From Escherichia phage phiEcoM-GJ1, in sequence record NC_010106.1: 52,975 nt of DNA. The stretch is one strand, 5' to 3'. Shown here in pieces: positions 9,632 to 52,975 of this stretch. Position 1 is the stretch's first letter, and the number at the start of each line of letters is the position of its first letter. The notes under the pieces are model-generated. The model was not told the origin of the DNA. It did not search any database and saw only the letters and a list, made by a program, of their open reading frames with translations. A program made the position numbers and the translations under genes.

Positions 9632-9651
9632 CTTCATCAATGGAGCATCCG

Positions 9652-10197
9652 ATGGAAAACCAAATTATTCAAGCAGTAACACAGCTTAAGTCCTGGCGTA
9701 GAGATGAAACCTTATTGGTTCGTTTCTACACAGGCGAAAACAATTCTAAATTTGAAGATGTGTGGATTGATGGACTGTCTTGGCGTCTTTATGATTTCGA
9801 CATGTCAGAATATTTGCATGAAGATTATGGCATCGAGTATCCAGAAACAGGTACTTATGACATTCTCGAATCAAGTGAAGCAGATGTTACAGAAGTTTGC
9901 TTTGTTGATGGGTTATTCAGCATTCGCAGATATGACAAATTCAACGAACTGCTTACTGACACTGACTTGGATATAATTCTTGCTGCATTCCGTAGCGATG
10001 AAATTGACATTTTCACTGTTTACGACTTGAACGACATGTTCATCACACGTTGCGACTCAATTGTGGACTACTTCAAGCAAGACGATGGGATAGAAGTTCC
10101 TGAAAACCTGCGTCCGTACATTGATTGGGATGCGATTGCAAGAGATTACGGAAGTGATTACATCTTCTCTGAGGGAGTATTGTTCCGCAATGCGTGA
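9652..10197 (+). CDS. ArdA-like acidic protein, candidate anti-restriction DNA mimic
   Basis: Very acidic ~180-aa protein; C-terminal segment EVPENLRPYIDWDAIARDYGSDYIFSEGVLF resembles the conserved ArdA C-terminal region (recalled from memory); early-region position. Confidence 0.5.
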   Translation: MENQIIQAVTQLKSWRRDETLLVRFYTGENNSKFEDVWIDGLSWRLYDFDMSEYLHEDYGIEYPETGTYDILESSEADVTEVCFVDGLFSIRRYDKFNELLTDTDLDIILAAFRSDEIDIFTVYDLNDMFITRCDSIVDYFKQDDGIEVPENLRPYIDWDAIARDYGSDYIFSEGVLFRNA

Positions 10198-14455: not shown

Positions 14456-14550
14456 GGACGAGTAGCTCAGAAGGTTTGCATTGTGCTCAGTCAGGTAGAG
14501 CAATCTGTTCGACAGATGTGTCGTTGGTTCGAATCCAACCTTGTCCGCCA
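14456..14550 (+). tRNA. tRNA-like element, non-canonical (possible degenerate or interrupted tRNA)
   Basis: Acceptor stem GGACGAG/CTTGTCC (one G-U), T-arm GTTGG-TTCGAAT-CCAAC, discriminator G plus CCA; TAGCTCAG and TCAGGTAGAGC D-arm halves are separated by a 20-nt insertion that duplicates GCTCAG; the anticodon-arm region forms a hairpin with only a 5-nt loop, so no anticodon can be assigned. Confidence 0.35.
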
Positions 14551-15094: not shown

Positions 15095-16027
15095 GTGAAC
15101 AAATGCTCGCCATCGCATTTCATTTGGCAGTCCGGTACGGGACTTTAAACACACGTACATCATAGTCGAGGGAGTGCGCGACTTTAAATAACGAGACTCT
15201 AACCACTTGTGGTATGGTAGGTGTAATTCCTGCAAGTTGCTCTGGGCATAACAATTGAAATTGCTGCCTCGCATTGAACGCGAGAAAGTTCAGGTAGTCA
15301 CTTCCTAGAACAGTGGCCGGGAACAGACCTAGACAAAAGTGCTTGAGAACGTTAGCTCTGTCTTGCCAGCATTAATGGCACGTTGGCCGCGTAAAGGCCA
15401 CAGCGTCTGACCAACGTATCGGTCACCAAATTCAATGGATTCGTAGAGTTAATTAAACCTGCACGATGGGATAGGGATGAAGCATCCGAGGCCGACTGTG
15501 TAATTGTGAACGTGGAGTTCACCGAATCCGCCAAATCAATGGGCTAGTGCAAATGTCAGTCACTAGAAGATGTGTTGCAAAACGTCTTCCATGATGTGCA
15601 AAGTGTCAGTCACGTGCCCACCACTTTCCTAACAGTTATGCCTCTGTTCAAAAGGCTCAAGAGAGCGTCTGGCATACCGTAGCGATACGGCTTAGTTGCG
15701 CTGATTGTGTTGTGCAGAAAGAAAGTTCAGGCTTTCGTTTGGGTTACTCCTCATCCCGAAGTTAGCTGGATTCAAAATCCAGACTATGTTCCTATACACA
15801 TGAAATATGCAAGTCGAGGGTTCTTAATGTTCAAACATGATGCGAGCATTAAGCGGGTTTATACTTTTCCCGATGGTCCCCATAAACAAGGCTGATTCAC
15901 TTGGGCGGTTCGAATCAAATTTAATAAGTGTCTTGGCCGCAGTGGAAACATCATTTAAGCCAATGTATTGTAATGTTCGTAATAGTCCACGTCAGGACAC
16001 TTACTTAAATTTTAACTGGAGAGAAAC

Positions 16028-16258
16028 ATGAAAACTGCTGAAATTGCCGAAGAGATTTATAAGGCTGTAATAGCCAGTCAAATTACCAGTGAAGTCCTGC
16101 ACATGGATATTGAAGAAGTTCGCAATGCCTTTGGCGGTTTTGCAATCTTGTCAATAGAAGCTGCGGAAGCACTGACAAACACGTACAACCATCGTGAATA
16201 CGAGAAGCGGTCTGTACTAAATGCGTCGCTAAAAGAAATTCAGGCGTCATTAAAATAA
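16028..16258 (+). CDS. hypothetical protein
   Basis: 76-aa ORF with GGAGAG RBS. Confidence 0.55.
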   Translation: MKTAEIAEEIYKAVIASQITSEVLHMDIEEVRNAFGGFAILSIEAAEALTNTYNHREYEKRSVLNASLKEIQASLK

Positions 16259-16314
16259 TACCATTATCATGGTGCGGAGCTAATTTATCTCCCACCATAT
16301 GAACCGGAGAGCAA

Positions 16315-16965
16315 ATGATTACTGCAACACTCGTTGACCACATGGGCAGCGACCTCACAACTGTTAATGCTGCACGAGCTTCTTATGGTGCAGAGTCCCA
16401 TGAGATGACATTGCGCGACGAAAAGCTCATTGAATTTCTCGCAAGGCATAAGCACAATACACCTTTTGCCCATGCGTATGTAACATTACGCTGCACTGCA
16501 CCAATCTTTGTTGCACGCCAACTGGGTAAGCACCAGGTGGGCTTTCGTTGGAACGAAGTTAGCCGTCGTTACAAAGATGGCGAAGCAATCGAAATTGAAT
16601 GCTTTGTACCTGATGTGGTGTTTGGTCGTCCTGAAAAGTTGATGACTCAGACTGCACAACCATTGCCACAGGATTTTGCTGACGATATTCACTATCGCAT
16701 GGAAATCCACAACAAGGCTTGCATTGCAGAGTATGAAACGTTAATTGGTTTGGGGATTGCTCCAGAGCAAGCCCGAATGGTGTTGCCACAATCCATGATG
16801 ACTACATGGATTTGGACTGGCTCTTTACTGGGCTGGGCTAATATGTACAAGCAACGCTCTACAGAGCACGCCCAATATGAGGCACGTTTGTTTGCAGAAG
16901 AAGTTAATAAAATTATGTCAGAACTATTTCCGGTTTGCTGGAAGGCTTTGACTAATCAGGAATAA
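16315..16965 (+). CDS. thyX: ThyX-like flavin-dependent thymidylate synthase homolog with non-canonical signature
   Basis: Resembles ThyX across the N-terminal half (HxxTPFxHxxxTxxxxAPIFVARQ...S-RY); the position of the canonical RHR-x7-S signature reads KHQ-x8-S. Confidence 0.75.
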   Translation: MITATLVDHMGSDLTTVNAARASYGAESHEMTLRDEKLIEFLARHKHNTPFAHAYVTLRCTAPIFVARQLGKHQVGFRWNEVSRRYKDGEAIEIECFVPDVVFGRPEKLMTQTAQPLPQDFADDIHYRMEIHNKACIAEYETLIGLGIAPEQARMVLPQSMMTTWIWTGSLLGWANMYKQRSTEHAQYEARLFAEEVNKIMSELFPVCWKALTNQE

Positions 16966-16985
16966 TAGTTGAAGGAGGTCTGGCG

Positions 16986-17429
16986 ATGAAGCTAGCCAAA
17001 AGCTATATATATAAGGTCGCCAGCACCCGAACACTTACTTGGACCCTCAATGGTAAAGGTTATTTGTCTGCAACCATGCGATATAATAATCACAAATATA
17101 CTATTTATAAACATGTCCTAGTATTCTTTATTCATAATGGGTACGTTCCAGAAGAGGTTGACCACATTGATGGCAACACATTGAATAATGAACCGAGCAA
17201 CCTCAGAGACTCTACTCGCTCGCAAAATTGCAGCAACAGGAAAGTGTTCTCTAATAACGCTCTCGGTGTAAAAGGCGTCCGTAAAGTAGGTAACTCTTAC
17301 CAGGTAAGAGTCTGCCACAACGGTAAGACAACGTATATGAGGGCTTCTTCACTGGAAGAGGCCCAAATTATGTCCAAAAGAATAAGGCAATCTCTGCACA
17401 AGGAGTTCGCCAACGAAGGTAAAATCTAA
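16986..17429 (+). CDS. HNH-AP2 homing endonuclease (copy 1 of 3)
   Basis: HNH core HVLVFFIHNGYVPEEVDHIDGNTLNNEPSNLR followed by an AP2-type DNA-binding segment GVKGVRKVGNSYQVRV...; GGAGG RBS. Confidence 0.8.
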   Translation: MKLAKSYIYKVASTRTLTWTLNGKGYLSATMRYNNHKYTIYKHVLVFFIHNGYVPEEVDHIDGNTLNNEPSNLRDSTRSQNCSNRKVFSNNALGVKGVRKVGNSYQVRVCHNGKTTYMRASSLEEAQIMSKRIRQSLHKEFANEGKI

Positions 17430-19192
17430 TGAATATTAAACAATGCGTCGCGAAGATAAAGCACGATGTACCTGGTTGTAAATCTACGTCTGGAAAATCT
17501 TTGCAAGTTTGGGTTAATACAGACGAATCTGGAAACACATCATATTCTGGATTTTGCTTTGCATGTGGTGTTCTTGTTCCAAATCCATATGGAACAGATG
17601 CAGAGAAGTTTCCCGAAGTCCATATCAAGACGCCAGAAGAGATTCAGGCAGAGGTGGATGAAATAACATCTTGCCCTCCACTTGATTTGGACCACAGAGG
17701 CATAGAGCCTGAGTTTTGGAAGGCTGCTGGTGTGAGGCTGTTGTATTCTGAATACGACGGGAAAACGCCCAACGCATTGGCTCACGGGTATACCAAGAAT
17801 GGTAAACTTGTACGTTGGAAAATCAAATTACTAAATAAGAAGGTTATGTGGTCAGTTGGGGATACTCAAGATAATGACCCATATAACTTTATGGCTGCGA
17901 AGGCCATTGGAGGTAAGACATTATTCATTACCGAAGGTGAAGAAGATTGTATTGCTCTCCGTCAAATCCTTAAAACAATGAATCGTGGCAGTGCTTATGA
18001 AGACCTCGACTTTGCTGTTATTAGCTTAAGTGATGGCAGTAGCTCTGTGCATAAATGCCTTTCTCGTGTTGCAGAAGAAATCAAGCAACGTTGGGAGCAG
18101 GTTGTTATCGTATTTGATGACGATGAACCTGGACGTAAAGCTGCCAAAGAAGCGTGTCGATTGTTGCCTGGTGCAATGATTGCAACACTTCCAGCTAACG
18201 ATGCTAACGATTGTTTGAAGCGTGGCTTGCTCAAAGCTACTCAATCTGCTGTTGTGTTCCGTGCTGCCCGTCCTCTTCCTACAGCACTTGTCAACAAAGA
18301 ACTTCTTATGGAAGAGCTTGATGATGAGGTTGAGCAGGGTGTGGATTATCCTTGGCCCAAGTTAACCGACTTAATGTTTGGTCAACGTCGAGCCGAAGTT
18401 ATTACAATCGGTGGTGCAGAAGGTGGTGGTAAAACTACCTTGTCCCGTCAGATTGTGCATCACAACATTACCAAGCACGATTGGGGAGTGTTTACTGCAT
18501 ACATGGAGGAAACTCCTACAGAAACACTGCGCCGAATGGCTGGCCTTAATGACAACTTGCCATATTGGGAACCTGCGTTTACTCGTGAAGACCCTCGATA
18601 TGATGAAGCTAAGTTCCGTCAAACTGCTGCGAAGATGCTTCGTAACATGGAGATTTGGGACCGCAAGCAAGCTGGAGAAGACCCTTATGAAACCTGGGAT
18701 GGGTTAAAGACGATTCTTCGTCAGATTGGACCAGACATTGATATGTTTGTCCTTGATAACTTAACCTACTTATCGGAAGGGATTTCTGCCTCAGAGAAGA
18801 ACGACTTCTTAGGTAAGCTGTATGCAGATATTACTAAGCTGGCAGACCAATACCAGTTCCATGTGAATATCTTGTCGCACCTCAACCCTGTGGCAAAAGG
18901 TCAGCGACCTCATGAAGATGGCGGACGAATCAAGAAGTCAGACTTTACTGGCTCTCGTGCTGCTGCTAAATATTCTCATGGTATGTTTGGCTTTGAGCGT
19001 AATAGCCAGGCAGTTGACCCAAACTGTTCTATTATTCGTTCCATCAAAGCTCGTAAGAGTGGTAAAACAGAAGGCTTCAAGACGTATTATGACACCGAAT
19101 CTGGTCGAATTATTCAACGTTCTTGGGATGACTCTCTGTTCGAAACTAAAGAGATTGTTCAACTTACTAAGAAGAACGGTCCACACCAATAA
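17429..19192 (+). CDS. DNA primase/helicase (T7 gp4-like)
   Basis: N-terminal Cys cluster (CFACG), TOPRIM motifs FITEGEEDCIAL and IVFDDDEPGRKAA, Walker A GGAEGGGKTT, Walker B-like MFVLDNL. Confidence 0.9.
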   Translation: MNIKQCVAKIKHDVPGCKSTSGKSLQVWVNTDESGNTSYSGFCFACGVLVPNPYGTDAEKFPEVHIKTPEEIQAEVDEITSCPPLDLDHRGIEPEFWKAAGVRLLYSEYDGKTPNALAHGYTKNGKLVRWKIKLLNKKVMWSVGDTQDNDPYNFMAAKAIGGKTLFITEGEEDCIALRQILKTMNRGSAYEDLDFAVISLSDGSSSVHKCLSRVAEEIKQRWEQVVIVFDDDEPGRKAAKEACRLLPGAMIATLPANDANDCLKRGLLKATQSAVVFRAARPLPTALVNKELLMEELDDEVEQGVDYPWPKLTDLMFGQRRAEVITIGGAEGGGKTTLSRQIVHHNITKHDWGVFTAYMEETPTETLRRMAGLNDNLPYWEPAFTREDPRYDEAKFRQTAAKMLRNMEIWDRKQAGEDPYETWDGLKTILRQIGPDIDMFVLDNLTYLSEGISASEKNDFLGKLYADITKLADQYQFHVNILSHLNPVAKGQRPHEDGGRIKKSDFTGSRAAAKYSHGMFGFERNSQAVDPNCSIIRSIKARKSGKTEGFKTYYDTESGRIIQRSWDDSLFETKEIVQLTKKNGPHQ

Positions 19193-19253: not shown

Positions 19254-19739
19254 ATGTCCGATGAACAAAAGATTTCTCTGTGGCGAAGTATGTTTTCCTA
19301 CACAGAGGATGGTAAACTTTACAGGAAGATGGAGTCCGGCAAGTTGAAACTTGTTGGTAGCCCTTGTGGACGAGATAAACTCTATCTTAATGTGCGTGTC
19401 GGGAAGTCATTCGAGTACGTGCACCGGATTATCTTTGGGATGCACTATGGATTCTTGCCAAAGCAAGTTGACCATAAGGTGGGATTTGATAACTCACCAA
19501 GCAATCTTCGTGCGGCAGACAACCAACAGAACAATTGCAACGTTGTCAGAAAACTTGGCGCAGTGCCTTTCAGAGGCGTATCCAGAATGAAGAATGGTAC
19601 GTTTGTAGCCAGGATAAGAAACGGAAATTCGAGGATATACATTGGGACTTTCCCAACTGCCAAACAGGCTGCTTTAGCATACAACGAATTTGCAATAAAA
19701 CTCCACGGAGAGTTTGCGATAATCAATAGGAACATATAA
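19254..19739 (+). CDS. HNH-AP2 homing endonuclease (copy 2 of 3)
   Basis: HRIIFGMHYGFLPKQVDHKVGFDNSPSNLR ... GVSRMKNGTFVARIRNG; inserted between primase-helicase and DNA polymerase. Confidence 0.8.
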   Translation: MSDEQKISLWRSMFSYTEDGKLYRKMESGKLKLVGSPCGRDKLYLNVRVGKSFEYVHRIIFGMHYGFLPKQVDHKVGFDNSPSNLRAADNQQNNCNVVRKLGAVPFRGVSRMKNGTFVARIRNGNSRIYIGTFPTAKQAALAYNEFAIKLHGEFAIINRNI

Positions 19740-21673
19740 TGCTCTATCCTTGGGAAAATATGTATGCCAGTGACATTGAAACAACTGGCCTGTTGGAGCA
19801 AATGCGCAAGCAAGCTGCACCACGTCTTCACAACATCGGATATATTGATGTTCTGACTCGTGAAGAAACTGTAATAGAGTGGACCGACAGAAAGTCTATC
19901 CAGGCATTTCTGGATACAGGCCCAACATTAATCATGCACAACGGCGCAACCTTTGACTTTGAGGCACTGAGGTTCCTGGGCTACGACGTTTCAAAATGTA
20001 CACTAATTGATACTTTGTTTATCAGTTGGTATCTGCAACCTCGTCGTGTTAAGCACGGCTTAGAAGGTTACGGCGAAGAGTTTGGTGTGCCAAAACCAGT
20101 CATTGAAGATTGGGAAAATCAAACTCAAGAAGAGTACAACCATCGTGTGATGGAAGACTGCAAGATTCAGTTGAAGCTGTGGGAACAGCAATACATTCAA
20201 CTCTTGAAGATTTATAAATCTCCTAGCGAAGTTAAACGCTTCGTTGAATACCTGATGACAAAAGCTCGTCAACAAGTTATTCAACAACGTACTCGCTGGA
20301 AGCTGAACATTGAGAAGGCATTGGCATTTAAGGCCAAGCTGGAACCAATGATTAAAGAGAAGACCGACGCATTGGAAGCATCAATGCCGCGTATTCCAGA
20401 ATATGTAATCAAGACCCGTCCAGCCAAATGCCACAAAATGAACGGACAATTGTCTGCCACTGGTATTAAGTGGAAAGCTGTTTGTGATGCAAACGGTTTA
20501 GACTGGAAAGACCCAGACTTAGCTATCAAAGTCCTGAAGGGTTATAAGGAACCAAACGCTGGTTCTCACGTACAGATTAAAGATTGGCTGTTTAGCTTAG
20601 GCTGGGAGCCAGAAACATTTAAGTTTGACCGCAATAAGGAAACAGGTGAGACTCGCCAGATTCCTCAAATCACTGTGAAGGATGAAGATGGCAATCCTGA
20701 AATATGTCCAAGCCTCCATAAGTTGGCAGAAAGAAACCCCGAATCTGGTATTCAACATCTTATTGGGATGGGCGTGTATAAACACCGTCTCTCTGTTGTT
20801 AATGGTTTTCTTCGCGACGTCGATGAAGACGGATACCTTACTGCACGATGCGGTGGCCTTACCAATACTTTACGCCTTAAACACCGCGAACTTGTTAACC
20901 TCCCTTCTATTCGTGTATTTGGCGGTGAAGAACTTCGTTCAATGCTGGAAGCGTGGCGCGAAGACTACGAACAGTTAGGTTCTGACTTGTGTTCCCTGGA
21001 AGACCGTTGTAAGCACCACTTCCAATGGATGTATGACCCTGAATACGTTAAGAAGCAGTTGGCACCAGACTATGATGCTCACCTTGCAATCGGCGTAATT
21101 GGTGGATTTATTACCGAACAGGAATCTCAGGACCACAAGGACGGAATTAAGAAGTGTAAACAACGTCCAATGTTTAAGACCACAAACTATGCTTGTCAGT
21201 ATGGTGCTGGTGTACCAACTGTAGCTCGTTCTGCGGGCTGTGACCAGACTACTGCTGCACGACTGCATAAAGCATATTGGGACTTGAACTGGTCTATCAA
21301 AGAGATTGCTGCGAACACCAAAGTTATCACAGTTGATGGTCAGATGTGGCAACAGAATCCAGTAAACAAGTTCTGGTATTCGTTGCGTACAGAGAAAGAC
21401 CGCTTCTCCACATTGTGTCAGGGCACTGGTGCATATGTGTTTGATATTTGGTGTAACAACATCATTGCAATTTGTAATGAACGTTGGGGATGTGACCCGC
21501 TTCTGTCTGGACAATTCCACGATGAATTGATTCTCCAGGTTAAGAAAGGCTTCCGAGATTTGTGGACGGACTTACTTAATGAAGCAATGGACCGAACCAA
21601 CAAAGAACTTAAACTCAATCGTGATTGTGCATGTGATGTACAATTTGGCGATAACTACGCAGAGATTCACTAA
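19739..21673 (+). CDS. family A DNA polymerase (T7 gp5-like) with 3'-5' exonuclease domain
   Basis: Exo I motif YASDIETTGL; polymerase motif A-like DLCSLEDR, motif B KTTNYACQYGAG, motif C QFHDELIL. Confidence 0.9.
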   Translation: MLYPWENMYASDIETTGLLEQMRKQAAPRLHNIGYIDVLTREETVIEWTDRKSIQAFLDTGPTLIMHNGATFDFEALRFLGYDVSKCTLIDTLFISWYLQPRRVKHGLEGYGEEFGVPKPVIEDWENQTQEEYNHRVMEDCKIQLKLWEQQYIQLLKIYKSPSEVKRFVEYLMTKARQQVIQQRTRWKLNIEKALAFKAKLEPMIKEKTDALEASMPRIPEYVIKTRPAKCHKMNGQLSATGIKWKAVCDANGLDWKDPDLAIKVLKGYKEPNAGSHVQIKDWLFSLGWEPETFKFDRNKETGETRQIPQITVKDEDGNPEICPSLHKLAERNPESGIQHLIGMGVYKHRLSVVNGFLRDVDEDGYLTARCGGLTNTLRLKHRELVNLPSIRVFGGEELRSMLEAWREDYEQLGSDLCSLEDRCKHHFQWMYDPEYVKKQLAPDYDAHLAIGVIGGFITEQESQDHKDGIKKCKQRPMFKTTNYACQYGAGVPTVARSAGCDQTTAARLHKAYWDLNWSIKEIAANTKVITVDGQMWQQNPVNKFWYSLRTEKDRFSTLCQGTGAYVFDIWCNNIIAICNERWGCDPLLSGQFHDELILQVKKGFRDLWTDLLNEAMDRTNKELKLNRDCACDVQFGDNYAEIH

Positions 21674-23924: not shown

Positions 23925-24449
23925 ATGGCTTACGGTTATTGTGGAACGGAAGCCAAGTTTGTATCTTGGCTCCAATCTGCTATTCGAAGTGTTTGGTCTA
24001 AACACCCAAGCAAACTTGCGCTGATACAATCTCGACGCATTGCATTGAAGGTTGGTGACTCAAAGAAACCAATCTTCCACATTCAATGCTACCATTGCAA
24101 GAAGTTGTATAAGCTCAAAGATATTGAAGTAAACCACAAAGTTCAAGTTGGTGGCCTTCTTAAGTTGGAAGACCTGCACCGCTTTGTGGACAACCTTTTA
24201 CTGGTTCAGCCAGAAGATTTGGAATTGCTGTGTAAAGATTGTCACGGCATTATTACATACATGGAGCGATATGGTGTATCACGTCGTGATGCAGTCATTG
24301 AGAAGAAGTGTATCGCATTTGCCAAATTGTCTGACGAAGAGCAAATTGCCAAGTGCAATCTTGCTAAAATAGAGCCAGTTCCTAAAACCAAAATCGGACG
24401 CAAGAATGCTGTTCGAGAATACCTGAGAAAGAATCTTAATGTCTATTAA
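23925..24449 (+). CDS. HNH/endonuclease VII-like Zn-binding nuclease (possible junction resolvase)
   Basis: CYHCKK ... EVNHK ... CKDCH pattern; GGAG RBS; lies in the replication/recombination module. Confidence 0.55.
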   Translation: MAYGYCGTEAKFVSWLQSAIRSVWSKHPSKLALIQSRRIALKVGDSKKPIFHIQCYHCKKLYKLKDIEVNHKVQVGGLLKLEDLHRFVDNLLLVQPEDLELLCKDCHGIITYMERYGVSRRDAVIEKKCIAFAKLSDEEQIAKCNLAKIEPVPKTKIGRKNAVREYLRKNLNVY

Positions 24450-25815: not shown

Positions 25816-26415
25816 ATGTCTTGCATGACCCAAGTTGTTGCAGTTAAACGAGTGCATCCTAATGCGAAATTACCTGTGTACGCTACTGCTGGCGCTGCTG
25901 CTGCTGACGTTTGCACTATCTCCGATAGCACTGTTGTCATCAATCCCGGCTGCTCTGCTGTTTTCGATACTGGCCTCCAATTCGAGATTCCAATTGGATA
26001 CGAACTCAAAGTACATAGCCGTTCTGGTCATGGCTTTAAGTCTGGCATTCGCCTGGCAAACTGCACAGGAATTCTGGACTCCGATTATCGTGGCAATCTT
26101 ATGGTTAAGCTGCACAACGACTCGGACACAGCCTTTGTGGTTCAGCCAGGTGAACGTATTTGTCAGGTGCAAGTTAGTAAAGCTACTCAACACCATTTCG
26201 TTGAAGTTGACCGCTTGAATGCAACTGGTCGTGGTGAGGGTGGCTTTGGCTCAACTGGTCGTGTGGAACTTGGTCAACATGAAAGACCACACATTCCTGA
26301 TGGTTCACACTCGCACAGCATCTCTATTGTTGGTGATGGCGGTGTGAAAGTGTCTTTGCCAGGTACTGTTGAAATCACTGGTTCCCACACCCATGGGGCC
26401 GAACGTTACAAATAA
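25816..26415 (+). CDS. dut: dUTPase (trimeric type) with ~50-aa C-terminal His-box extension
   Basis: Motifs HSRSGHGFK, GILDSDYRGN, GERICQ, RGEGGFGSTGR in canonical order; extra C-terminal GSHSHSISIVGDGGVKVSLPGTVEITGSHTHGAERYK. Confidence 0.85.
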   Translation: MSCMTQVVAVKRVHPNAKLPVYATAGAAAADVCTISDSTVVINPGCSAVFDTGLQFEIPIGYELKVHSRSGHGFKSGIRLANCTGILDSDYRGNLMVKLHNDSDTAFVVQPGERICQVQVSKATQHHFVEVDRLNATGRGEGGFGSTGRVELGQHERPHIPDGSHSHSISIVGDGGVKVSLPGTVEITGSHTHGAERYK

Positions 26416-26817: not shown

Positions 26818-27003
26818 ATGCGCACAATACAATGTCCTAACTGCCATTATGAAATTGCAGAAGATGATTTCATAACGCAGCAATGTCCTATCTGTGATTC
26901 ATACATGCCACTAAACCGCCTGTATTTAAAGGCCGATTCTGGTTTAGGCAGCATCATTCGCATCAATCCCGTGCAAACTCAGCCATTAGTGGATTGTGAT
27001 TAA
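26818..27003 (+). CDS. zinc-ribbon small protein
   Basis: CPNCHYEI ... CPICDSYM: two CxxC pairs; 61 aa. Confidence 0.5.
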   Translation: MRTIQCPNCHYEIAEDDFITQQCPICDSYMPLNRLYLKADSGLGSIIRINPVQTQPLVDCD

Positions 27004-27514
27004 AAACAAAGAGAACGAATCAATGTCAATACTAAGAGACAGATTGGTTCAATTACTTCACTACGACGAAGCTACTGGCATCTTTACATGGGTGCACGCC
27101 AACAGTAACAGAGTCAAAGTTGGTGATGTTGCAGGCACTATTGGAAGTGCTGGTTACATCTACATTAAGGTTGACGGGGTACGCTATGGCGCACACCAGC
27201 TTGCATTCATCTTTATGGGTGAAGAAGTTCCTGAAGTAATTGACCATGTAGATACCGTACCTTCCAATAATGCTTGGTACAATCTACGTCCTGCCACTTG
27301 CCAGAATAATTCCTATAACATTGGAATAACTTCCAGAAACACCTCTGGGATAAAGGGAGTTGGTTGGGATAAAGAGAGAAAGAAGTGGGTTGCCAAAGTC
27401 TCACTAAATGGGAAGCAACACACTCTTGGAAGATTTACATCTAAACTTGATGCTGAGGCAGCTGCCAAGCTGTTTAGAGAGAAGAACCACAAAGAATTTG
27501 CAAGGAGTCTGTGA
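26996..27514 (+). CDS. HNH-AP2 homing endonuclease (copy 3 of 3)
   Basis: HQLAFIFMGEEVPEVIDHVDTVPSNNAWYNLR ... GIKGVGWDKERKKWVAKV; immediately upstream of the terminase gene; start GTG 26996 or ATG 27023. Confidence 0.8.
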   Translation: MIKNKENESMSILRDRLVQLLHYDEATGIFTWVHANSNRVKVGDVAGTIGSAGYIYIKVDGVRYGAHQLAFIFMGEEVPEVIDHVDTVPSNNAWYNLRPATCQNNSYNIGITSRNTSGIKGVGWDKERKKWVAKVSLNGKQHTLGRFTSKLDAEAAAKLFREKNHKEFARSL

Positions 27515-51302: not shown

Positions 51303-51857
51303 ATGCTATCATTCAAAGTCCTTGCACTTCTGGCAGCTTTAGTTCACATCAACGCCCCAGCTTCGGTTGGGGCAGTGAACACTGCTATTATAGATTTTGC
51401 AAGTCATTCTTATTTAAATGGAAGTCTAAAACTATCTTCTTCACAACGCAAAGAGCTAGAATGCTACGCTAAAGTTATCTGGTATGAAGCTCGCGGAGAA
51501 GACAAACATGGAAAGATTCTGGTAGCTAATGTCGTCCGTAATAGAACAGAGTTCGGGAAGCCATTCGCTAACACCGTTTGTAATGTTGTCTATCAACGCA
51601 ATCAATTTGCATGGACACGAGAAGCAAAGAAGAAGAATGCTCAATGGAAGCATGTAGCAAAGGTTAATTATGCCACAGAACAACAACAAGTTCTGGACAC
51701 GATTAATGTTGCAATCTCTTTTGTATTATTTAATCAACCCTCTGTCACCAAAGCAACTCACTTTTGCACAGCATCGGAGAAGTGTAACTTCAAGAATGTC
51801 AAAGGATTGGGACGTTATGGTGGCCATAAATTCTATGAGTATCTAGGAAATCTGTAA
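51303..51857 (+). CDS. SleB-like cell-wall hydrolase (endolysin) with N-terminal signal or signal-anchor sequence
   Basis: N-terminus [24 protein letters not shown]; catalytic domain resembles the SleB/Hydrolase_2 family ([11 protein letters not shown]...VVRNRTEF...QFAWT). Confidence 0.7.
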
Positions 51858-52975
51858 TGGCTTACACTACCTTTTCACAAACCAAGAATAACCAATTACT
51901 AGAGCCAATGTTCTTTGGTCAGAACGTTAACGTTGCTCGATATGACCAACAGAAGTACGGCATATTCGAGAAGTTAATTGAGAAACAATTGTCATTCTTC
52001 TGGCGACCGGAAGAGGTAGACGTTTCCCAGGACCGTATTGATTATCAGAAGCTACCTGCAAACGAACAACACATTTTCACCAGTAATCTTCGTTATCAGA
52101 TTCTTCTTGACTCAATTCAGGGACGTGGGCCCAACACAGTTTTGCTTCCAATCGTGAGCATTCCTGAATTGGAGACGTGGATTGAAACCTGGTCTTTCTC
52201 CGAGACTATTCATTCACGTTCTTATACCCACATCATTCGTAATATTGTTACAGACCCAAGCATTATCTTTGATGAAATCGTAACTAACGAACACATCAAG
52301 GCACGAGCAATTGGCATCTCCCAATATTATGACGAACTCCAGCAACTCACTGCATTATGGCAGTTGTTCGGAGAAGGGAGCCATGCTGGTCATGAAATTA
52401 GTCTGCGTGAGTTGAAGAAGAAGCTGTATTTATGCCTCATGTCTATCAATGCATTGGAAGCAATTCGCTTCTATGTCAGCTTTGCTTGCTCATTTGCCTT
52501 CGCAGAACGTAAGTTAATGGAAGGAAATGCCAAGATTATTCGCTTAATTGCACGAGATGAAGCACTTCATTTGACAGGAACTCAGCACATGCTGAACCTT
52601 CTTGCAAGTGGAAAAGATGACCCAGAAATGGGTGAAATTGCTGCTGAATGCCGCCAAGAATGCCAGAAATTGTTCGAAGATGCTGCTCAACAAGAGAAGG
52701 ATTGGGCCGATTATTTGTTCAAAGATGGCTCTATGATTGGCTTAAACAAGCAAATTCTATGCGGATATGTGGAATATATCACGAATATTCGTATGCAAGC
52801 AGTTGGATTAGATGCTCCATTCAAAGGTGCAACTAACCCGATTCCGTGGATTAATGCATGGTTGAATTCGGATGCTGTACAGGTTGCTCCACAGGAAACG
52901 GAGATTAGTTCCTACCTGGTCGGGCAAATTGACTCCGAAGTTGATACCAATGCGCTCGGTGGATTCGAGTTGTAA
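51857..52975 (+). CDS. nrdB: ribonucleotide reductase class Ia beta subunit
   Basis: 372 aa, alignable end to end with E. coli NrdB as recalled ([11 protein letters not shown]...[11 protein letters not shown]...[21 protein letters not shown]...[22 protein letters not shown]), but with AT-richer codon choice than a host chromosomal gene. Confidence 0.9.

Follow-up and report, generated by a model that had tools for sequence, protein, structure and literature searches.

A KH-type variant of the ThyX signature in a Chaseviridae phage and in a clade of predicted flavin-dependent thymidylate synthases

The signature RHR-x7-S of flavin-dependent thymidylate synthases (ThyX) is said to have been described by Myllykallio in 2002. 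In the product of the gene at 16315-16965 of the DNA considered here (the 'window', which denotes the whole stretch of 52,975 nucleotides that was analysed), the corresponding residues read KHQ-x8-S, and a first-pass annotation took this deviation as a possible sign of altered substrate or cofactor handling, of a different nucleotide-modifying activity, or of lost catalysis. The question that the locus raises is whether a ThyX-like protein in which two of the three residues of the 'RHR' triad are replaced is still a thymidylate synthase and, if it is, which side of its active site has been altered.

Family membership and register of the signature

By its profile, its predicted fold and its substrate site, the product of the gene is a full-length ThyX. 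The Pfam profile PF02511 (Thy1) is covered from end to end (profile positions 1-191 of 191 by residues 5-207; E 6.6e-42, 143.9 bits against a cut-off of 24.8), so that it was wrong to confine the likeness to the N-terminal half of the protein, as had been done at first. The protein also scores above the cut-off of the NCBIfam equivalog model TIGR02170 (129 bits, cut-off 87.9), and it has a match to PHROG 85, 'thymidylate synthase' (E 8.6e-71). HMMER aligns residues 5-212 with the ThyX structures of Thermotoga maritima (1kq4) and Thermus thermophilus (6j61), each at E ~2e-26; of the 23 PDB matches, all but two chance ones (E >0.05) bear the name ThyX or thymidylate synthase. An AlphaFold2 model, computed with a 30-sequence alignment as input, was predicted with a pLDDT of 93.9 and a pTM of 0.88, and the top 50 PDB matches that Foldseek returned for this predicted model were all T. 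maritima ThyX (TM 0.76-0.82, probability 1.00, 33% identity). The gene is preceded by a Shine-Dalgarno-like element (Table 1), and the same CGGAGAGcaaATG is listed for ORF38 of the related phage ST32 (PMC6266442); scans for repeats, promoters and terminators around thyX returned nothing exceeding chance.

Within this protein the variant signature can be read codon by codon, with eight residues (V75-V82) between Q74 and S83, and the reading of KHQ-x8-S in place of RHR-x7-S at 16528-16566 was confirmed at the level of the codons as well as by alignment. HMMER alignments to 1kq4 and 6j61 place K72, H73 and Q74 on R78, H79 and R80, and S83 on S88; the only difference in length between these two points is one extra residue in the window protein (VGFRW against IA-SY). 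On the T. maritima sequence, the stretch from K72 to Y86 falls on R78-H79-R80...E86-L-S88-G89-R90-Y91. MAFFT gave a register identical to that of HMMER, whether 131 or 16 sequences were aligned, and, because these registers agree, the position of the motif, for which an alignment with ThyX enzymes had been proposed as a check, was assigned correctly.

The deviation might instead be an artefact of alignment, with a canonical RHR-x7-S lying elsewhere in the protein, and this explanation can draw on nothing but the one-residue indel in the loop. It was rejected, and deserves next to no credence: the tripeptide R-H-R is absent from the whole 216-residue translation, and the independent alignments (HMMER with two structures, MAFFT with 16 and with 131 sequences) are concordant, anchored by APIFVARQ upstream and by NE-x-S-x-RY downstream. 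Nor is KHQ-x8-S a sequencing slip, since KHQ-x8-SRRY recurs in 119 of the 120 homologues of the close set (the best 120 clusters at 90% identity, 68-98% identical to the window ThyX), the remaining one carrying KHS. The literal R-H-R-x7-S signature is therefore absent from the window ThyX, which keeps only its His and its Ser, and the same is true across the KH-type clade described below.

Table 1. Features of the window discussed in the text
Feature	Positions	Strand	Basis or remark
ORF with sub-threshold ArdA anti-restriction match	9640..10197	+	E 8.6e-4, 20.4 bits against a cut-off of 27
tRNA-Leu (anticodon CAG)	14456..14550	+	95 nt by ARAGORN; Rfam RF00005 over 14456-14547, 41.8 bits; single tRNA
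Region with only short overlapping ORFs	~15100..16028		~0.9 kb, upstream of the thyX cluster; ST32 counterpart 16414-17404 unannotated
Shine-Dalgarno-like GGAG	16306..16309	+	5 nt upstream of the thyX ATG, read from sequence
thyX coding sequence, KH-type (K-H-x...S-R-R-Y) ThyX, predicted flavin-dependent thymidylate synthase	16315..16965	+	ATG start, 216 aa
H47 codon (T. maritima H53)	16453..16455	+	H in 125 of 128 representatives
R68-Q69 codons (T. maritima R74-Q75, dUMP contacts)	16516..16521	+	invariant in alignment A1 (30 sequences)
Variant signature K72-H73-Q74-V-G-F-R-W-N-E81-V-S83-R84-R85-Y86	16528..16572	+	codons and alignments; K72 aag 16528-16530, H73 cac 16531-16533, Q74 cag 16534-16536, S83 agc 16561-16563, R84 16564-16566, R85 16567-16569, Y86 16570-16572
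R78 codon of the window protein	16546..16548		loop GF-R-WNE
KQGS loop region (residues ~97-117)	16603..16665		KLM[TK]Q[TS]A instead of KQGS
R154 codon (T. maritima R147, dUMP phosphate)	16774..16776	+	R in 127 of 128 representatives
L172 codon (T. maritima R165; Mtb R190, Hp R165; FAD phosphate/ribityl contact)	16828..16830	+	never R in 128 representatives (A/L/Y/M)
R181 codon (T. maritima R174, uracil contact)	16855..16857	+	R in 128 of 128 representatives
HNH endonuclease ORF	16986..17429	+	147 aa, PF13392 E 2.9e-14; between thyX and primase/helicase
T7-like primase/helicase	17429..19192		thyX directly upstream
ORF with HNH and AP2 domains	19254..19739	+	between primase/helicase and DNA polymerase
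Family A DNA polymerase	19739..21673		same replication module, downstream of thyX
ORF, positional counterpart of ST32 gp44 'HNH endonuclease'	23925..24449		zero Pfam match
dUTPase	25816..26415	+	PF00692 E 1.1e-22; ST32 homologue gp47 annotated dUTPase
ORF with HNH and AP2 domains	26996..27514	+	just upstream of the large terminase
Ribonucleotide reductase (RNR) small subunit	51857..52975	+	PF00268 E 1.4e-49; last ORF, ends at the final base of the window

Active-site residues and distribution of the signature

The roles of the dUMP-binding and catalytic-loop residues of T. maritima ThyX were reportedly set out by Mathews in 2003. For the present comparison they were taken from PMC6514825 and PMC5003785, and all residue roles were transferred from reviews and structures of RHR-type enzymes. 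In such enzymes FAD is hydrogen-bonded at its AMP phosphate, its ribityl chain and its FMN phosphate by the RHR triad, by a Ser and by R190 (Mycobacterium tuberculosis, Mtb) or R165 (Helicobacter pylori, Hp; R165 also in T. maritima) of the neighbouring subunit, and the first Arg of the triad additionally bonds to the isoalloxazine and to dUMP (PMC6514825). That first Arg (R78) faces N1/C2=O of the reduced flavin, where a basic residue is common in flavoproteins, and H53 of T. maritima stacks on folate and flavin (PMC11940539).

When these roles are mapped onto the window protein, the dUMP-contacting and catalytic-loop residues of T. maritima (R74, Q75, E86, S88, R90, Y91, R147 and R174) are all kept, as R68, Q69, E81, S83, R85, Y86, R154 and R181, and H53 is kept as H47. 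The substitutions seen in the alignments are R78 to K72, R80 to Q74, R165 to L172, G89 to R84 and W76 to L70. Both of the arginines that contact the phosphate and ribityl parts of FAD (R80 and R165 in T. maritima, R97 and R190 in Mtb) are thus absent, with Q74 and L172 in their places; a His occupies the R165 position in T. thermophilus ThyX, so that an Arg there is not universal in the family. K72, at the position of R78 (on the flavin N1/C2=O and dUMP sugar side), retains the positive charge. Because the altered residues correspond to R78, R80 and R165, which form hydrogen bonds to FAD in RHR enzymes (PMC6514825, PMC11940539), the changes appear to lie on the FAD-anchoring side of the site, away from its nucleotide and folate side, with a first position that stays positively charged.

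The distribution of the signature was followed in a second, more distant set of sequences. An exhaustive HMMER search of 1.84 billion representatives at 50% identity gave 7,014 matches at E<=1e-3, and the best 150 of these 7,014 (41-59% identical to the window ThyX) included 128 that were short enough for alignment. In these 128 representatives the first signature column holds K in 110 and R in 17, the second H in 116, and the third Q (66), K (22), T (15), V (6) or R (5), followed by S in 126, R at the G89 position in 120, R in 125 and Y in 126. K-H-x...S-R-R-Y would therefore define a large clade of ThyX, common to viruses and cells and not peculiar to the window gene. Phages of at least seven lineages carry it (Chaseviridae, Grimontviridae, Kuravirus, a Pseudomonas phage, a roseobacter Autographiviridae phage, N4-like Schitoviridae and Barbavirus); in Kuravirus, Grimontviridae, N4-like Schitoviridae, Barbavirus and the roseobacter Autographiviridae phage the KH signature and SRRY are accompanied by the same position in a replication or nucleotide module, although the Schitoviridae and Barbavirus proteins differ from the window ThyX in reading KHK and VENE. 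In the ThyX proteins of Bacillus and Streptomyces phages the triad reads K-Y-[VT] and the insertion is longer. The ThyX proteins of mycobacteriophage L5 (gp48, RHR-x7-S), cyanomyovirus Syn1 (RHR-x7-S) and the Bixzunavirus Grungle (RHR-x8-S) belong to the same family, with a presumed role in dTMP supply, yet retain RHR; since Grungle combines RHR with x8, the longer spacing is a polymorphism of loop length and not a part of the KH change.

Apart from the signature, the region of the 'KQGS' loop also varies. Only one of the 120 close, Chaseviridae-type homologues has KQGS, against 128 of the 150 distant representatives, so that the Chaseviridae subclade, with KLM[TK]Q[TS]A, differs in this respect from most other KH-type phage ThyX; Kuravirus and Grimontviridae have H-[DA]-G-S at this position.

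Several long ThyX homologues (470-600 aa) contain inteins with textbook ends. Four of them (P0129, P0203, P0232 and P0244) are interrupted inside the signature itself, as KHQ-x-G-F / C-L-[ST]-x-D-T...V-V-H-N / [SC]-W-N-E-x-S-R-R-Y, at a site that corresponds to the F77/R78 junction of the window protein, and two others (P0176 and P0255; C-Y-D...G-N, then T) between the equivalents of H47 and T49, in a conserved H-x-TPF site. Inteins typically persist in conserved functional sites, and their presence inside the KH motif therefore marks it as such a site. The residue that follows the junction is itself variable: R78 of the window protein is an Arg in a loop where most relatives have Ser (GF-S-WNE), an Arg that is shared by 8 of the 120 close clusters, and in the intein-bearing homologues this position (Ser or Cys) is the +1 nucleophile of the intein.

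The signature was also sought in bacterial chromosomes, by scanning a single genome from each GTDB species with a 10-sequence alignment, which yielded 69 loci; because the search patterns contained ARQL.KHQ, the scan favoured the KHQ type, and these loci are uninformative on its frequency. In four bacterial lineages the neighbours of KHQ-type thyX are long housekeeping genes, and the synteny is maintained from one species to another. In Spirochaetia (L021, a 1.79-Mb chromosome, and L019) it stands between genes for citrate synthase, an aldo-keto reductase and an SDR on one side and those for dihydroorotate dehydrogenase (pyrD) and OMP decarboxylase/phosphoribosyltransferase (pyrF-pyrE) on the other; in four species of Nitrospinaceae (L034, L040, L066, L076) it stands between AcrB and HlyD genes and those for LytB/IspH and MlaA; in Chloroflexota/Dehalococcoidia (L038/L042, L052/L058, L059) genes for 2-oxoacid dehydrogenase E2 and MFS transporters are near it; and in Poribacteria (L041, L043, L047) its context is likewise one of housekeeping genes. 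As its place is kept across species, and once lies beside genes of pyrimidine synthesis, cellular KHQ-type thyX behaves as a resident thymidylate synthase.

Many of the 69 loci are phage-like contigs mis-binned into metagenome-assembled genomes (MAGs). KH-type thyX stands beside phage genes in L029, L048, L050 and L087-L089 (assigned to a 'Rickettsiales' MAG, a 'Prochlorococcus' single-cell genome and an alphaproteobacterial MAG), which look mis-binned. Among these, L029 ('Rickettsiales', with ClpX and EndoIII neighbours) was rejected as a cellular locus on account of its abundant marine relatives, which point to a large phage, and L048 ('Prochlorococcus', with gp32) and L050 (with a family B polymerase) were rejected as phage-like. 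One of these ThyX proteins, P0282, occurs on 57 contigs, with Tara Oceans among the sources, in contexts of PhoH, Cpn10, MazG, a clamp loader and many small ORFs.

Predicted function and competing readings

The window ThyX is very probably a working flavin-dependent thymidylate synthase with a remodelled anchoring of FAD, and KHQ-x8-SRRY appears to be the mark of a clade and not a defect, with the dUMP and folate site unchanged. The location of the gene in a replication module, and the presence of a dUTPase and an RNR small subunit in the same genome, fit an active enzyme. [quoted passage not shown] E. coli uses ThyA, and synthesis of dTMP by the phage enzyme during infection would be independent of it.

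As to the altered residues, K72 would take over the contacts of R78 with flavin N1/O2 and the dUMP sugar, and a Lys could serve there as well; what R78 provides is a basic residue that faces flavin N1 (PMC11940539). The third Arg of the triad and the equivalent of T. maritima R165 would be dispensable in the KH clade. R84, beside the Ser of the catalytic loop, may add charge near the phosphates and offset the lost R80 and R165; at this position it is the backbone (of G89 in T. maritima, of Ala97' in PolB, which is discussed below) that binds the dUMP phosphate.

Canonical ThyX (T. maritima TM0449, PDB 1O26 and 1KQ4; T. thermophilus, 6J61) resembles the window protein in its full-length fold, its dUMP residues, the Ser, Arg and Tyr of the loop and the folate-stacking His, and differs in having R78, R80, R165, W76 and SGRY where the window has K, Q, L, L and SRRY, and in having one residue fewer between triad and Ser. 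The homology-annotated ThyX proteins of the same genus (ST32 gp38 and phiEcoM-GJ1 gp33) carry the same KH-type signature. Because the window protein shows the profile, the predicted fold and the substrate site of ThyX, while RHR-x7-S and the two arginines for the FAD phosphates are absent, it is best filed, on present sequence comparisons, as belonging to a variant clade of ThyX and not as a canonical member.

A ThyX fold with an altered motif might act on another substrate or make another product, for example as a UMP/dUMP C5-methylase of the PolB type, as a dCMP methylase, or as a hydroxymethylase that feeds DNA hypermodification, and for such a reading it can be said that the historical signature is not present, that several neighbouring phage ORFs are without a Pfam match, and that a ThyX homologue with a widened substrate range does exist (PMC5003785). 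That homologue, PolB of Streptomyces cacaoi (PDB 4P5A), is a ThyX-like, FAD-dependent UMP/dUMP C5-methylase and is homologous to the window ThyX (E 4.3e-17), which stands closer to T. maritima ThyX (E ~2e-26) in a comparison that, for PolB, is one of E-values only. PolB appears, by residue spacing, to retain the first Arg of the motif (Arg86), so that loss of the motif is not its defining trait, and its substrate range has been ascribed to Loop 1 (Tyr124, Tyr126), Loop 2 and Tyr99, and not to changes of the motif (PMC5003785). In the window protein the residues that contact uracil O4/N3 and the phosphate (R181, R154, R85, S83, E81 and Q69) are unchanged and the altered ones contact FAD, not the base; bacterial chromosomal thyX genes with the same signature lie in housekeeping contexts, including one beside pyrD and pyrF/E; and a Pfam search of 16 of the larger ORFs of the window (five of them matchless) found no kinase, glycosyltransferase or other hypermodification gene. 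The different nucleotide-modifying activity that the first-pass annotation had entertained thus finds no support in these comparisons, and a changed substrate or product is quite improbable.

More improbable still is a catalytically dead or decaying protein, whether as a relic or as a ThyX fold that has been turned to nucleotide binding or to a regulatory role. The replacement of two residues of the triad and the missing KQGS motif of the Chaseviridae subclade would be expected of such a protein, but the ThyX of T. maritima, which is an active enzyme, also aligns without KQGS. Loss of catalysis is further contradicted by purifying selection, with dN/dS values of 0.08-0.24 wherever dS is unsaturated (Nei-Gojobori; five Chaseviridae genes, from the window, ST32, PYps16N, Pantoea phage SSEM1 and Erwinia phage pEa_SNUABM_27), by an ORF that is unbroken in ~120 clusters of relatives and a motif that is nearly invariant in them, by the conservation of all substrate residues, by the confident AlphaFold2 model, and by the occurrence of the signature in the syntenic thyX genes of four bacterial lineages and of inteins within it.

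The first-pass annotation had also considered altered cofactor handling. As two side chains that form hydrogen bonds to FAD (the equivalents of R80 and R165) are missing, the affinity for flavin or its mode of binding could differ, and the two lost FAD-phosphate arginines together with the new Arg in the substrate loop raise the suspicion that the KH-type clade handles flavin differently. Its hold on FAD might be loose or the pose a different one, FMN might be accepted, or the reductant might be other than the usual one. Such a difference is plausible but, on balance, unlikely. If it were true, the textbook motif would cover only part of the family, and what is learnt about the inhibitors and mechanism of RHR enzymes could not be carried over to the KH-type enzymes, which phages and some marine and uncultured bacteria commonly possess.

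The sequences are already public under the name of ThyX, the homology-based annotation of the gene as thymidylate synthase stands in ST32 and in dozens of relatives, and an ordinary function is expected of it. Searches of the literature and the PDB found no characterised or solved KH-type enzyme (both PDB alignments that were inspected, T. maritima and T. thermophilus, are canonical RHR), no paper that describes the KH variant or assays a member, and nothing usable on ThyX motif variants, complementation by phage ThyX or mutagenesis of R78/R80; phage genome papers simply name the gene thymidylate synthase, and the Chaseviridae papers found are silent on the ThyX motif and on DNA modification. 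The RHR-x7-S signature was used in PMC2826268 (Stern et al. 2010), where ThyX sequences more than two dissimilar amino acids away from RHRX7S were excluded, and the signature of the KH clade departs from RHRX7S at both arginines and in its spacing; the 'ThyX motif' of the literature is not universal. A single characterised KH member would show which FAD contacts ThyX chemistry needs, and whether inhibitors aimed at RHR enzymes reach this clade.

Genomic surroundings of the gene

The window is an essentially complete genome of the Chaseviridae, genus Carltongylesvirus (ST32-like), with 91-94% DNA identity to Escherichia phages ST32, flopper, Bp7 and EcoM1 and to Yersinia phages PYps3T/4T. The ThyX of EcoM1 is the closest relative of the protein (98% identical), and the orthologues in the records of these relatives are annotated 'thymidylate synthase' by homology. 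The genome also encodes a T7-like RNA polymerase, and no thyA is annotated in the relative ST32. An RNR large-subunit gene was not noticed in the window, and an orphan beta subunit is likewise described in the ST32 paper.

The replication module is rich in genes that resemble those of homing endonucleases (Table 1). The HNH ORF that follows thyX looks like the insertion of a free-standing homing endonuclease; in ST32 and PYps16N, where this ORF is lacking, a gap of just 4-5 bases separates thyX from the primase/helicase gene. The region of short overlapping ORFs upstream of the thyX cluster holds short two-copy direct repeats only and no terminator-like site. Further upstream, the ORF with the ArdA match is, by its position, likely the counterpart of ST32 gp26, 'anti-restriction protein'.
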